A DNA stretch of 63,744 nt, the filler included, from Chrysochromulina tobinii (taxonomy: Eukaryota): the NCBI GenBank assembly GCA_001275005.1. It is 7 parts of 7 records of this genome, joined end to end, with 100 filler letters (N's around TTAATTAATTAA, not from the genome) between each part and the next. Parts side by side here need not be neighbours in the genome. Positions count along the whole stretch, not along the records: positions 30,550 to 38,456 come from JWZX01000885.1; 6 more parts are not named here. The stretch is one strand, 5' to 3'. The stretch's first letter is position 1. Every line of letters starts with the position of its first letter. Below are positions 15,678-51,337 of this stretch, in pieces. The notes below the pieces were generated by a model. It was not told the DNA's origin and searched no databases. It was given only the letters and a program-made list of their open reading frames with translations. The position numbers and the translations under genes were made by a program.

Positions 15678-15777
15678 NNNNNNNNNNNNNNNNNNNNNNN
15701 NNNNNNNNNNNNNNNNNNNNNTTAATTAATTAANNNNNNNNNNNNNNNNNNNNNNNNNNNNNNNNNNNNNNNNNNNN
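15678..15777. other. Artificial contig linker
   Basis: N44-TTAATTAATTAA-N44 six-frame stop linker. Confidence 0.99.
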
Positions 15778-17939
15778 GGCGGCGGCGGCGGCGGCGGCCT
15801 CGGCGGCGGCACGGGCATCGGCGGCGGGGCGCCAGTCGCATCGGTAGTATCGCGTTCACAAGCCGAGCGCCTCGCCAGCCCTGAGCGCCTTAATCTCGAT
15901 CGTCGAGGTCTCACTGCGTGCCCCTTACTGCAAGGCGAGGAGAGGCTTCGGCTGCTCAACTACCAGAACAACGCAATCGCCGAGATCAGCAACCTCCACA
16001 CGCTGCCGTACCTCATCTTCCTCGACCTGTGCGCACACGACTGCCTCCTTGACTGCCTCCTTGAGTGCCCTCTGAGTGCCCCTCTGAGCACCCTCTGAGC
16101 ACACACTGAGCACCCTCTTGAGTGCCTCTCTCATCAGGTACAACAACCGGATTTCGAGCATCTCGGGCCTCGAAGGAGTCCCCTCGCTCCGTGTGCTCAT
16201 GCTCGGCAAGAATGCCATCCGGGCCATCGAGCGCCTCGAGAAGCTGACGAAGCTCGACGTGCTCGACCTGCACTGCAACCAGGTAGGTGGATCGACCCAG
16301 ATTGCACCTGGAGAGCTCTTGATTGCCCTTGATGAAGTACGTGGATCGCCCCAGATTGCACGCTCTTGATTGCGCTTGATGAAGTACGTGGATCGCCCCA
16401 GATTGCACCTGGAGAGCTCTTGATTGCGCTTGATGAAGTACGTGGATCGCCCCTGATTGCGCCGCCTGGTTGCCCCTAAGCGCGCCTCGAGGCGTTGACG
16501 AAGCTCGGCATGCATTGCCATCAGATCGGAGCCATCGACGGCTTGTCGACCCTCTCCGAGCTGCGCGTGCTCAATCTCGCGGGCAACCAGGTGACGAATC
16601 TGATTGACCCCTGATGTGACGAATCTGATTATGGCCCCTGATGATGGCTCCCTCTCCGAGCTGCGCGTGCTCAATCTCGCGGGCAACCAGATCGCGCACC
16701 TCGAGGCGCGCCGGCTCGCCGGCCTCACCTCGCTGGCCGAGCTCAACTTGCGACGAAACTTGATCACGTCGGTGGCGGGAGTGGAGGCGCTGCCGGCGCT
16801 GCAACGCCTATTTCTCTCCTACAACGCCATCAACACGCTCGCGAGCGTCTCGTGCCTGCAAGTACGCTGATTGCGTCCTGATTGCGTCCTGAGTGCGTCC
16901 TGAGTGCGCACGGATTGCATCCTGAGTGCGTAGTGATTGAGTTCTGAGTGCGTTCTGAGTGCGTTCTGATTGCGTCATGATTAATCGCGAGCGTCCCGTG
17001 CGTGCAGGCCGCCGCAGGGTTGCATGAGCTCGCGCTCGACGGAAACCCGGTCGCGTCGGACGCGTCATACCGGCACGCAATCCTGTGCATCGGCCGTTCC
17101 CTTCGCCATCTCGACTTACGGCGCGTCTCCGAGGACGACCGACGGGCGGCACAGGCGCGCTGATGGCCTCTGATTGCGTCCTGATGACCGCCGATTGCGT
17201 CCTGATGGCCTCCAAAGACCACTGAGGACCGCTGATTGCGCCACAGGCCATGGCTCCGATTGCGTCTGATTGCGTCTGATTGCGTCCGATTGCGTCCGAT
17301 TGCGTCCGATTGCGTCCGATTGCGTCCGATTGCGTCTGATTGCGTCCGATTGCGCCACAGGCGTATGCTATGGCTCGCGAGGCCGAGAAGCCACCGGTGC
17401 CATCACCCACCCCCCGTGATCAGCAAGAGAGGACGGGCGACGCAATCAGAGGCGATCAGGATGCAATCAGAGGCCATCAAGAGAGGACGGGTGACGTGAC
17501 TGTTGGGCTCAGGCAGTCGTTGCACCACCCCGCGCCAGCCGCGTCGGCGCCCGCGACGGCGCTCGAAGCTGCCGGTGGCGCCCCGACGTCGTCGCGGGCG
17601 CCGCAGCCGCCGCAGCCACCCTCACGCCCGCTTGGCGCACCGTCAGCGGCTGATCAGTCAGCGGTAGCTCCGCACACCAGTGCCGCTGGCGGCATCGGCG
17701 CCGCCGCAGCCGGACGCGCCGCCGCCGCTGCCGCCCTTCGAGCTCGAGCGCTCGAGATCGGCCAGAGCAGCGCTGAAAGAGGTGGGGCGCCCACCACGGC
17801 GCCGGTCGCGGCACCAGCGCCGTCTCGAGCGCCTCTCTCGCAGGGCCGGTATGCTGGGTATGGCGGCGGCGCTGGTGGCGGCGCCTGTGGCGGCGGCGCT
17901 GGTGGCGACGGCGGCGGCGTTGGCGGTGGTGGCGGCGGT

Positions 17940-17980
<41 letters not shown>

Positions 17981-19206
17981 AGGTTCGCACACGGGTGCCC
18001 AGTACGGCGCCTTGCCACCGCCGGGCAGCAGCAGCAGCAGCGCCGCTCAGACCGTCGGCGAGGGTTCATCACGGGGTTCGTCACGGGAGGAGCGTGGCCA
18101 AATCGAGACGACCGAGATGGCGGGAGGTGCGTCACGGGGTTCGTCACGGGAGGAGCGTGGCCAAATCGAGATGACCGAGATGGCGGGAGGGGGCGTGTGG
18201 CTGCATGCATACGGCGAGGCCGCCGATGCGCTCGAGACGGCGCCGCGCTTCGCCGACGCTGTGGGGGTGAGCTTCTCTTTTCTTCCATTCGAGCGACTCG
18301 CGCGAACGGCCTTCCCCAAGCTCCGGTCGCTCCGGCGGTTACGCGAGCTGCATCTCGAGCACACAGAGCTCCACTCGCTTCATCAGCTCCACTCCTTTGC
18401 ATGCGTGCCTGGCGTCACCACGCTTCGCGTCTCCGTCGAGGGCAACCCCGTGGTGACGCATGCACACTTCCGATCCCTAATTGAGTCTGATTGCAACCCC
18501 GTGGTGACGCATGCACACTTCCTCTCCCTCTGCACCCCATCAGCCTAATTGAGTCTGATGGCATGCTGATGGCCTCCCTCATCAGGTGACGCATGCACAC
18601 TTCCGATCCCTCTGCACCGCAACTATGCCGCTCCTCCGCTCTCTCAACGGCGCCGAAATCACGCGAGATGAGCGCGAGGCCGCCGAGGGCGAGTGGCGCC
18701 GTCTCAAGCGCCTCTACTCGATGGCCCGCAACACATTGCATGCAAGGCATGCGCCGCTGCCGTTACTGCATGCAATGAGCATCTTCGACGGGCCGACCGA
18801 CACAGGCGCCGGCGCTCGAGACGGCGCTCGTGCCGGAGGAAGTGGTGCCTCCGTCACGAGCGCCGTCACGAGCGCCGCGCGCCATGCTGCTGGCGCGCCC
18901 GCGCACGCGCCCGCGTCCGCCGGCGCTCGTGACGGCGCTCTTTCCGGTACGTCCTCACGGGAGATCCAATCTCCGCCCGCGCAGCTCGCCGCCGCCTTCG
19001 TCGATCGCGTGCTCGAGCATGCCTTGGCCGTGGATGAGAAGATCTCGCAGCTGAATACGGCGTGGCCGCACATCGTGGCCACGTACCAGGCGCGCGTGCA
19101 CGCGGAGGTGGTCGACCGTTCCCTCTTCCTCCGCCGGTACCAAGCGGCGGCGAGCGGCAGTGATGAAGGTGCGACACTCGCGCTGCCCGAGATGCCCGCC
19201 GCCTAG
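15778..19206 (+). CDS. LRRC49: Leucine-rich repeat protein 49-like (tubulin polyglutamylase complex subunit), 5'-partial, multi-exon
   Basis: Spliced reading PERLNLDRRGLTACPLLQGEERLRLLNYQNN...LIFLDL|YNNRI...LRVLMLGKNAI...LDVLDLHCNQ|I...LRVLNLAGNQ|I...LQRLFLSYNAI...|ELALDGNPV...LRHLDLRRVSEDDRR follows LRRC49. Introns 16029-16137, 16283-16524, 16591-16690, 16862-17007, 17155-17360 (GC-AG) and 18453-18585; the middle part is uncertain. Confidence 0.85.
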
Positions 19207-21437: not shown

Positions 21438-30449
<9,012 letters not shown>

Positions 30450-30549: not shown

Positions 30550-31006
30550 CTTGGCCAAGTCCGGGTTAGGCACCTCTGGCCAAGTCCGGGTTAAGAACCC
30601 GTGCCCGAAAGAAGTCCGGGTTACGCACTAACCTCGTACTTAACTGTACCGGTAACCATTTTTTATATACCGGTAAAAAGACTCCGGGGGGAGCCGGGAC
30701 AAACACGGGACACACGGGACACGCGGACGCACAAAGGCACACGGACCACACTGACGAACCTCACAACCATCCAAACCCACCAACAACACACACACACCGC
30801 AGACGTCAGCGCGACGAGCACTTAAGACGACCGAAGCCGCGGCCGACTCAACAGCCGCAGGCCCGGAGCCGACCGCTCCCCGCGGCCGACTCAGAAGAGG
30901 CCGCCCCCAGCAAACCCGACCCTGCCTCCACCCGCTCCCAGAGCGCCTCCCCGGTAAAAAGACACCGGGGGGAGCCGGGACAGGGCACAGGGGACACACA
31001 CGGGAC
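30550..31006. repeat. Non-coding repeat region with short tandem and dispersed direct repeats
   Basis: AAGTCCGGGTTA x3 (30557-30623); CCGGTAAAAAGAC(T/A)CCGGGGGGAGCCGGGACA at about 30670 and about 30951. Confidence 0.75.
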
Positions 31007-31185
31007 TGTAGAAGTTAAAGGCCGTTCTCACGCCCTTGCAAACTCATCCGAAAGAGGCCTCCAGACACACGCGGTCGGCCACAACCCATACAGTACAGGA
31101 CGCCTTTTGACTTGATTTGACTTTACTTGATTGCCTTGAGTGCCTTATTTGCCTTCATTTCGCGCTACGTCTACCGGTACGTACC

Positions 31186-34729: not shown

Positions 34730-36641
34730 TCATTCGCTGTCCACGCAGCAGATGCCCAGGCCCAATTGTGACGTGCCTGGCGCCTCGCCGCTCCATGATG
34801 TGGACTGCGCGCCACCCGCGTCGGCCTCCTCCCTGGACCACGTGTGCGAGTTGGACGTGGCCCAGCCCATCTGGCGTGCGGCGGCGTACCCTCCCGAGTA
34901 CAGCTCCCGCAGGTTGCACAGATGGTAGCCGAGCCGGCACGAGCGGGCGGCCGCATCGAAATTGCACGCCATGCAACCCAGCTCAACGAACGCCGGCTCG
35001 ACCCCCCCGAGTGCACCTGGGATGAGGGAGGCCATCAGCATGCAATGAGGGAGGCCATCAGCATGCAATGAGGGAGGCCATCAGCATGCAATGAGGGAGG
35101 CAATCACAGCTCGACACCCCCGAGTGCACCTGCGGCGTCCGCCTGGATCTCGTCGTGACAGCATGCAATGAGGGAGGCAATCAGCATGCAATGAGGGAGG
35201 CAATCGCACCTGCGGCGTCCGCCTGGATCTCGTCGTGAGTGAGAGCGCGAGAGAAGAGCTTGAACTCGTCGATGAAGCCGTCCATACCGCCCTTGCGCCA
35301 CGGGTCGCCACCAAGGTACAGGTTGCCGGTGTTGTGGACAATGGTCCCCACCGTGGAGTTCTCCGCATCCAGGAGACCGTTGATGTACAATCGGAGAGAA
35401 TGGCCCTCCGCCACACACGCGAGGTGCGTCCAACGGCCGAGCGGCACAAAGGAATTGGACCACAGCCGCTCGCCGTCGGGCTGGTTCGCATCCGTCGTCG
35501 AGACGAAGAACTCAAGGCCGCGGGTCAATGGCTCGAGGAAGACGGTCGGCGTGCGGTCAGAGTCGCGCGCCCCCTTGTGCAAGACGGTGCGCCAGTCGCC
35601 GGTCGAGTCCTGGCGCAAGTAGAGCCACAAGGTGAGGCTGAACGTGTCCCGGGCCTCGGCCATCCGGGCGTGGTGCGCGATCTCTGAGTAGTCCTCGGCC
35701 CCAACATACCGCGCTGCGTGCCCCTTGCCGCCAATGCCAGGCCCAACGGCCGGTGGTTTCGTCGCGTGGTTGTGCATGCCGCTCGTATCGAGCGCGTGCG
35801 CGTCGTCAAAGGTGAAGTGCGCGATGATCCCGCGTGGCGCCGCGTCGGCGGCGAGCACTTTCTTGCCCCCCTCGACGCAGATGGGGCCCTGCGCCACAAG
35901 GTCGCAACGGCCACCGCTTGCCGCCGCAGCTTCCTTCCCTGCGTCCACCGCCTCCGTCAGCCTCGCCATCTTCTCTTCCTTCGAGCCCGTCTTGCTGAGG
36001 CCGCGCGCGCTGAGCGCATCGTCCAGCTTGCTCAGCGTGCAGCTGAAGCCCGGGATCGCGTCCGTCATCCGATCGCAGTGCCGCTGGAAGGTGTACAGCC
36101 GGCCGATCAGGTCGCGCTGCGATCCGGCCGATGTGAGCATACGCTCCGCTGTGGCCTGCTGCAGATCCTCGAGCGCGAGGCTTGCGGCGAGCGGGCGCTG
36201 CGGGTTGATGATGTAGCACTCGCGCTCGATACGTGCCTCAAGCTTGTCCACGAGCTCGGCCAGCGGCTCCGATGCCGAGAAGACCTCCCCCTTTTGCTCG
36301 AGCACAGTGTGCAGCGCGGTGGCGTTGTCGAGGCGCGATCGTGGTGGAAGCGAGGCCTGGGCCCGCAGCGCCGCAGCGAGGTCGCGCCGGAGCTCGTCGG
36401 CGCGCGCGCTCAGCGAAGGCGTCGAACCCAGCTTCTTGAGCTGATGCCGCATGAGGTGTGCCGTCGCATTTGGCCCGAGATGTGCTTCGATGAGCTCTTC
36501 ATCCGGGGAGCAAAGCGGCACGAGCTTATGCGGCGCCGAAGTCGTCAGCTCGTCAGCCGCCGGCTCGAGTGCCAGCGACGCCGACAATGACGCCGCCGAC
36601 ACGGCCTGGATGACGAACCAAAATAGGTGTGTCACCACCAT
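34730..36641 (-). CDS. Secreted LamG/concanavalin A-like domain protein with a SAP-like motif and a Cys-rich C-terminus (intron 35017-35209)
   Basis: Signal peptide MVVTHLFWFVIQAVSA; SAP-like LSARGLSKTGSKEEKMARL; LamG IIAHFTFDD..DTSG, FSLTLW, WTHLA, LYING, GFIDEFKLFSRAL; spliced C-terminus GC..C...C...YHLC..EL..GY..AR.MGW. Confidence 0.8.
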
Positions 36642-38567: not shown

Positions 38568-39196
38568 TGATGACCACTGATGACCACCGATGGCCACTGA
38601 TAATCACTGATGACCACCGATGACCTCCGATGACCACCGATGACATCGGACGACCTCGGATGACCTCCGATGACTTCCGATGACCACCGATGACTTCCGA
38701 TGACCACCGATGACTTCCGATGACCTGTGATGGCCACTGATGGCCACTGATGACCACCGATGACCTCCGATGACTTCCGATGACCTCTGATGACTTCCGA
38801 TGACCTCCGATGACTTCTGATGACCTCCGATGACTTCCGATGACCTGTGATGACCTCCGATGACTTCCGATGACCTGTGATGACCTCTGATGACCTCTGA
38901 TGACCACCGATGACCTCCAATGACCTCCGATGACCTCTGATGGCCACTGATGACCTCCGATGACCACCGATGACATCGGACGACCTCGGATGACCTCCGA
39001 TGACTTCCGATGACCTCTGATGACCTCTGATGACCTCCGATGACCTCGGACGACCTCGATGACCTCCGATGATCTCTGATGATCTCTGATGACTTCTGAT
39101 GACCTCCGATGACTTCCAATGACCTCTGATGACCTCTGATGACCTCTGATGACCTCTGATGACCTCTGATGACCTCCGATGACCTCTGATGACCTC
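38568..39196 (+). repeat. 10-bp satellite (TGATGACCTC/CGATGACTTC variants), about 60 units
   Basis: Strict 10-nt periodicity seen directly; same unit family as the intronic repeats of contigs 2-3. Confidence 0.95.
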
Positions 39197-51006: not shown

Positions 51007-51036
51007 TTAGGGTTAGGGTTAGGGTTAGGGTTAGGG
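51007..51036 (+). repeat. Interstitial telomeric repeat (TTAGGG)5
   Basis: Five perfect units, internal to the contig. Confidence 0.92.
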
Positions 51037-51337
51037 TTTTAGCGTGAGAGTCGATGTGTCACACTGGAGTGTCTGACACTGAAGATGCGCGGAAAGTTTC
51101 GTCGAAGTTTCGTCACTGACCTCACTAAGTTTCGTCATCTCTTTATTAGGCAACCAGTGGGTTTCGTCAGTCAGTCTACCGGTACCAAACCTCCGTACGA
51201 TATAATCATAGTTCATACAAATCTCTAAAGGTCTAATCTGATACATTCTGTCATCTCATTCCTATTTATTCCCTATCGTAAATCTGGGTCAACTGCTGTC
51301 GTGTGTCGATTCAAGATCAACCGCGAACGCGCTCAAA

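Follow-up and report, generated by a model that had tools for sequence, protein, structure and literature searches.

A 193-nt intron of Chrysochromulina tobinii holds a copy of its own exon junction, a likely by-product of two small DNA duplications

The window analysed here is a stretch of 63,744 nt of DNA, filler included, of the freshwater alga Chrysochromulina tobinii. It is a chain of unrelated contigs with six linkers of 100 nt, each a 12-nt AT spacer set in N runs, at 15678, 30450, 38457, 40721, 58334 and 60924, and consequently genes on the two sides of a linker are not linked. The contig at 30550-38456 carries, on the minus strand, a gene for a protein with a LamG domain, homologues of which come from Prymnesium and other sources; its upstream and downstream exons are separated by the intron at 35017-35209 (Table 1). 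A separate metagenome assembly (L001), which may share its strain with the window DNA, is 100% identical to this contig over 7907 nt, including the entire intron, and extends beyond it on both sides; the DNA structure of the intron is very probably real. Short AACCCGG-type repeats in both orientations lie at 30550-31010 of the window and at 7480-9562 of L001, where the window contig ends and L001 continues. Short telomere-type TTAGGG arrays were also seen inside contigs, at 1470-1505 and 51007-51038.

Table 1. Features of the LamG gene and of its intron, in window positions
Feature	Position	Strand	Evidence
Upstream exon, coding part (start codon inferred); conserved LamG/concanavalin-like haptophyte protein	35210..36641	-	ORF; Laminin_G_3 E=1.8e-25; RNA contigs over 35206-36638
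Downstream exon to stop codon; cysteine-rich C-terminal part	34730..35016	-	ORF; PF26058 precomputed on homologues
Compound intron, 193 nt, GT..CAG, phase 1	35017..35209	-	Skip in RNA contig of run X14; spliced frame equals C. parva P0051 across the junction
Unit 1 (80 nt): working donor, two 23-nt repeats and upstream exon-end copy; likely later addition	35130..35209	-	Start present in 12/14 intron-reading gene calls listed
Unit-1 repeat filler, 47 nt, 46/47 identical to start of unit-2 filler	35159..35205	-	Sequence comparison
50-nt junction copy, internal CAG/GTG at 35130/35129	35109..35158	-	49/50 match
Unit 2 (113 nt): downstream exon-start copy, about four 23-nt repeats and working acceptor; likely original intron	35017..35129	-	3' end in 14/14 intron-starting gene calls listed
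33-nt direct repeat, outer copy, spans donor; partner 35126-35158	35206..35238	-	100% identity, family D2
24-nt direct repeat, outer copy, spans acceptor; partner 35109-35132	34996..35019	-	96% identity, family D3

Removal of the intron is observed in RNA. A contig of RNA run X14 skips exactly 193 nt, with CT..AC ends, and in RNA run X12 two exon contigs break at the intron site. The skip is complete and the protein is unchanged: across the junction the spliced frame is that of the annotated Chrysochromulina parva protein P0051, and it matches homologues too; P0051 and the window are identical throughout the final 455 residues encoded by the upstream exon. With its GT..AG ends, its precise removal from RNA and the restored frame, the intron behaves as a spliceosomal one. 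Two distant haptophyte gene calls on long contigs (P0009 and P0010, 59-67% identity) read through the intron site, which suggests that the intron was gained in this lineage. In four DNA-based calls of relatives (P0002, P0059, P0016 and P0017) the frame is left a few codons upstream of the site, after DEIQ or EFK, suggesting other introns at nearby but different positions of the LamG gene. Three further sequences (L002-L004) follow the spliced protein in collinear order; of these, L003 and L004 have A-runs at their ends and look like transcripts, and are therefore uninformative on the presence of the intron.

Inside the intron lies the copy of the exon-exon junction noticed in the initial annotation. 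It consists of 29 nt matching the end of the upstream exon (35210-35238), followed directly by 21 nt matching the start of the downstream exon (34996-35016), with a sole mismatch at 35116, and its local alignment score of 47.5 compares with a maximum of 17 among 600 random pieces of the window. Also confirmed were the proposed split of the intron into two abutting units, each running from GT to CAG, and the flanking 23-nt repeats, present as 3.7 copies at 35022-35106 and as 2.0 copies in the unit-1 filler. A repeat finder resolves the underlying matches into two direct repeats, of 33 and 24 nt, that overlap on 7 nt around CAG/GTGC and both include CAG/GTG (the slash marking the splice border or its copy). 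The filler between the repeat copies, 47 and 89 nt long, is non-exonic, and the five 23-mer matches with at most one mismatch in the window are all inside this intron. The 50-nt junction copy is likely to be the overlap of two small local DNA duplications, which enclose 23-nt repeat filler.

Several other features were looked for. The window holds no other full copy of the intron; no terminal inverted repeats were found at its ends, and neither fixed element ends nor a poly-A tail for its filler. Clean microhomology was seen at neither end of the unit-1 filler. Rfam gave no family match at E up to 1, and no special fold was found, the intron folding less stably than shuffled sequences (z=+1.99). 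The mismatches between repeat copies, 0/33 versus 1/24, do not differ significantly and give no dating signal.

Alleles in close relatives were read from the protein ends of gene calls made on raw DNA, ends that reveal nothing on the internal copy. The upstream cluster has 86 members (40 read), and among the 15 listed, seven open the intron as the window does, five do so with one residue changed, two open it with the downstream-exon copy and one is a spliced model. The two that open with the exon copy are alone among those listed in sharing two further substitutions and a different N-terminus, and on this ground they look like a separate lineage rather than a random collapse. In the downstream cluster (15 members listed of 20), 14 calls start inside the intron, one of them being the window's own sequence, and all 14 have the end of unit 2. 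Judged from these protein ends, the end of unit 2 is fixed among the listed gene calls and unit 1 is not. The exon-copy-first allele leaves the order of events unfixed, because a deletion between the 33-nt repeats, or an assembly collapse of the type seen in DNA run X1 (below), gives the same allele. A further homologue search for closer relatives with other alleles gave six distant proteins and nothing new.

For comparison we used the introns of the contig at 15778-30449, for which 15 RNA joints are listed of 20; twelve were taken as introns, and three were dropped (one double skip and two several-kb joints between repeats). Together with the LamG intron this gives a sample of 13 introns from two contigs, 79-398 nt in size. 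Copies of their own flanking exons, at p of about 0.01 or less, were found in six of the twelve neighbouring introns, and six were without them. The copies are all in direct orientation, mostly of the upstream exon end, and the duplications are 10-45 nt long. Most neighbouring introns are filled with tandem units with a TGATTG, TGATGG or TGATGA core, with wide differences in filler among the 13 introns, and TCATCAG or a near form makes the 3' end of five of the twelve. YTRAY is the branch-point consensus, usually found 19-22 nt from the acceptor, and a motif of this type occurs in the filler at that distance in five of the 13 introns; the filler may consequently carry its own splicing signals.

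The same construction, a donor followed by filler, a copy of the exon end and GT again, is found in three RNA-confirmed neighbours and in one predicted intron. The latter (18453-18585, plus strand, 133 nt) lies in a leucine-rich-repeat gene and is not among the listed RNA joints, although its splicing restores the frame; it begins with a 26-nt copy of the next exon and has an internal 47-nt junction copy (44/47) with GTG/GTG at the internal point. From their sequences, junction copies appear to recur in neighbouring introns. Among the RNA-confirmed introns, 16591-16690 (plus strand, 100 nt) ends in 41 nt that repeat the upstream exon end without a mismatch and include the acceptor, and 21885-22071 and 25746-25998 (minus strand) are two-unit introns in which a 45-nt copy and a rearranged 14-16-nt copy of the exon end, respectively, are followed by a second GT. 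In these last two the fillers of the two units are unlike, so that fillers can also come from elsewhere. The bases before the internal GT in the four parallel two-unit introns are CG, TG, GA and TG, that is, never AG.

Further repeat structures were observed in the window. In the RNA-confirmed 398-nt intron at 23215-23612 (minus strand), the first half is a tandem array, with about 4.8 copies of a 46-nt unit in which 17 nt of exon end are joined to the donor; this gives four decoy donors. An RNA-supported 206-nt intron at 17155-17360 (plus strand) has an 8-nt repeat at its flanks and a filler of 10-nt units; it is best read as GC..AG, a reading that depends on the cut chosen within the 8-nt repeat. 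Filler-like repeats at 17399-17519, opposite in orientation to the gene, lie within a long open frame, with no joint among those listed. Finally, at 38569-39196 (plus strand), starting after CAG/GT at the edge of a contig, a 10-nt unit of this filler type is repeated about 63 times and may form a very long filler intron; 7-nt, 52-nt and 113-nt arrays follow up to 40714.

We propose that the LamG intron was probably built by two DNA events, with the junction copy as their likely by-product. In the first, repeat filler would have entered the exon at a CAG/GTG site with duplication of about 24 nt of target, producing the 113-nt unit 2. Such an intron starts with sequence copied from the next exon, and for that reason its border with the preceding exon reads like an mRNA junction. 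In the second, the final 29 nt of the exon, together with the donor and a neighbouring pair of filler repeats, would have undergone a local duplication, with most of the exon copy missing from the upstream copy; the donor would thereby have been shifted 80 nt upstream and the old border left inside the intron, which would then be removed in a single step, from the outer GT to the outer AG. The initial annotation had named two successive insertions as one possibility. Two successive DNA events at one site agree with our reading, but the near-identity of the fillers makes the second look more like a local duplication of exon end and donor than a new insertion; a local template is favoured by this match and by the confinement of all 23-mer matches to the intron. 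Each step is seen alone nearby, the exon copy at the end in 16591-16690 and the exon copy at the start in 18453-18585. A duplication spanning a splice site leaves the mRNA unchanged, and such duplications are therefore likely to persist; this would also explain why the surviving copies end in GT. Possible agents are a target-primed retroelement and error-prone break repair in which the template is switched; we favour break repair or template switching during replication. Since half of the neighbouring introns tested keep exon-end copies, and assemblies from lakes and from culture have different alleles of the LamG intron, population data can be used here to test intron birth and the relocation of donors.

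A wider reading, which we regard as rather unlikely, is that Chrysochromulina has an active and undescribed way of building introns, in which branch-point-like tandem repeats are written at DNA breaks between target duplications of about 20-45 nt, new introns are created and new donors repeatedly stacked on old ones, and a newborn ratchet point is used where, as in the LamG intron, the exon ends in CAG. Standard introner screens would miss such a process, because no two introns would be full copies.

An unlikely alternative to the two local events is that a dispersed repeat element inserted twice, independently, at one site with long target duplications (24 and 30-33 nt), as a target-primed retroelement might. 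The repeat is indeed abundant, being present in 297 and 277 contigs of two DNA runs, where loose ends that derive from other loci are numerous, and its summed read depth is several hundred times that of the flanks, a figure that is not a copy number; the unlike fillers of the two neighbouring compound introns agree with such insertions, and LINE insertions with long and variable duplications are known from the available text of PMC9977147. Duplication lengths do vary among the introns, as for non-LTR or Penelope-like retroelements. However, both fillers of the LamG intron share a 23-nt unit that is absent from the other introns of the window, although fillers vary so widely among the 13, and the repeat lacks the fixed ends, terminal inverted repeats, poly-A tail and RNA family that were sought. 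As to an introner family, the repeat occurs at many loci, yet the window has no second full copy of the intron; duplications of 24 and 33 nt here, and of 10-45 nt in the neighbours, are not the fixed short ones of introners, and the inverted repeats of MITE-type introners are missing. Scans for the repeat motif found no stretch in viral contigs, and in prokaryote genomes none at first and then 41 single matches in unrelated bacteria and archaea, which were taken as chance. The available parts of PMC10288648 and PMC8557442 give no link of the 23-nt repeat to Replitrons or Penelope-like elements, and those of PMC12480563 hold nothing bearing on the intron.

The initial annotation had also suggested templating from mRNA or an intact allele. 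We consider it improbable that a 50-nt patch was copied from spliced mRNA, cDNA or an intron-less allele into a filler-only intron during repair. The array would be nearly in phase once the block is removed, with a 7-nt terminal repeat, and a second junction copy exists at 18453-18585, but this mechanism requires two non-homologous jumps centred on the intron's own junction. Most neighbouring copies, furthermore, have only one side of the junction (the upstream exon end and GT), a pattern that an mRNA template leaves unexplained; 18453-18585 also opens with an exon copy, as two duplications predict; and an allele opening with the exon copy exists. An mRNA template is not needed, since a copy of the next exon at the start of an intron already makes the exon-intron border junction-like.

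That the internal AG/GT is a functional, maintained ratchet point, with two-step removal of the intron through a zero-length exon, is very unlikely, and as a selected feature the earlier suggestion of such a point is not supported. The dinucleotides are in place, both units run from GT to CAG and are of normal size for this genome, the acceptor within an exon copy works at 16591-16690, and from their sequences units 1 and 2 could each be spliced alone. Furthermore, an RNA contig of run X12, of depth 2, has the intron-specific base at 35116 with 17 nt of upstream sequence. This contig, however, fits unspliced RNA or DNA equally well and the same path occurs in a DNA run; the 31-letter words of the assembly are shorter than the 33-nt repeat and leave the contig ambiguous, and as a candidate half-spliced form it was rejected as uninformative. 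The acceptor context is weak, the internal acceptor having the lowest pyrimidine fraction of those tabulated (0.43) and its nearest YTRAY being 55 nt away, against 22 nt for the outer acceptor; either half-spliced form meets a stop within nine codons; and two of the 14 listed calls lack unit 1 at their start. The absence of AG from the four parallel introns makes the AG/GT look incidental, present in the LamG intron solely because CAG closes its exon. A two-step splicing signal is thus not favoured over a by-product of two duplications, which is the likely origin of the 50-nt copy. Incidental use of the internal AG/GT remains a candidate route to recursive splicing, of rather low probability; if it is used, a single mutation is enough for recursive splicing to arise in an intron of 193 nt.

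Misassembly of two haplotypes that each had a single unit (unit 1 in one, unit 2 in the other) is extremely unlikely: the contigs of four runs all fall short of the complete intron and two DNA runs diverge within the 33-nt repeat, X3 leading to unit 1 and X1 skipping 35126-35205 (80 nt), but the separately assembled L001 is identical, a unit-1-only end is found in none of the 14 listed intron-starting calls and none of five further matches, 12 of the 14 listed upstream calls start with unit 1, DNA contigs pass unbroken from the downstream exon into unit 2, and no DNA joint connects the real downstream exon with either the upstream exon or unit 1. The divergence of X1 and X3 is explained by the repeat exceeding 31-letter words, and for this reason the 80-nt skip in X1 was rejected, as uninformative, as a candidate unit-2-only allele. 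It is also a warning, since repeats of this kind exceed common assembly word sizes and mimic skipped or half-spliced forms.

How new introns originate is still an open question, and most gains have lost their source. In the LamG intron the source is legible: it bears the scar of an intron's birth and of a relocated donor, belongs to a local habit and can be placed among known routes of intron gain, in a genus where the published introner screen of one genome is empty. In the available parts of that 2025 screen (PMC12130899, supplement 7) C. tobinii has 0 families, and the 15 haptophyte rows give duplications of 2-5 nt and one family with 10-bp terminal direct repeats. The accessible parts of the literature searched, largely without subscription papers, showed no account of Chrysochromulina introns with repeat filler and long duplications, and a matching family could sit among the 214 mentions of Chrysochromulina in the supplement of 10.1101/2022.06.06.494994.

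Two intron-sized units in one intervening sequence are shared with recursive splicing at AG/GT ratchet points and, in the available text of PMC8469720, with fungal stwintrons. In a stwintron, one of the external intron's splice signals is split by the internal intron, whereas here the units abut and the outer donor and acceptor are intact; two-step removal is not required, because neither unit interrupts a splice signal of the other. Among the closest models are introners that recruit splice sites from the target duplication, described for Polarella class 14 (10.1101/2020.10.14.339549), for family 5 of Chrysochromulina sp. (10.1101/2022.06.06.494994) and in PMC11282704. Polarella class 14 and family 5 have in common with our intron a repeated filler and splice sites taken from the duplicated target. 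Their duplications are fixed at 3-8 nt (4 nt in Chrysochromulina sp.), and those of the introners compared, in the same partly accessible literature, are mostly 2-8 nt, against 24 and 33 nt in the LamG intron and as much as about 45 nt in its neighbours; the filler here is, furthermore, a variable tandem one without defined ends. Introns gained at repaired breaks, another such model, are flanked by direct repeats and polymorphic within species, as PMC3488318 and PMC3443670 describe them. Both properties are found here too, but the direct repeats of those introns are described as short, whereas ours are long, with a branch-point-like tandem repeat as filler.

A further one of the closest models, in the available text of PMC3443670 and PMC4974935, is tandem duplication of an AGGT-containing segment, including a case in potato where an existing intron-exon border was duplicated. 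As in tandem genomic duplication (Rogers), a duplicated exon segment with AG/GT supplies the splice sites and the protein is unchanged. The intron in that model consists solely of duplicated exon, whereas the LamG intron includes 47 and 89 nt of filler, and here two events are stacked at one site, in a habit that recurs in half of the neighbouring introns tested.
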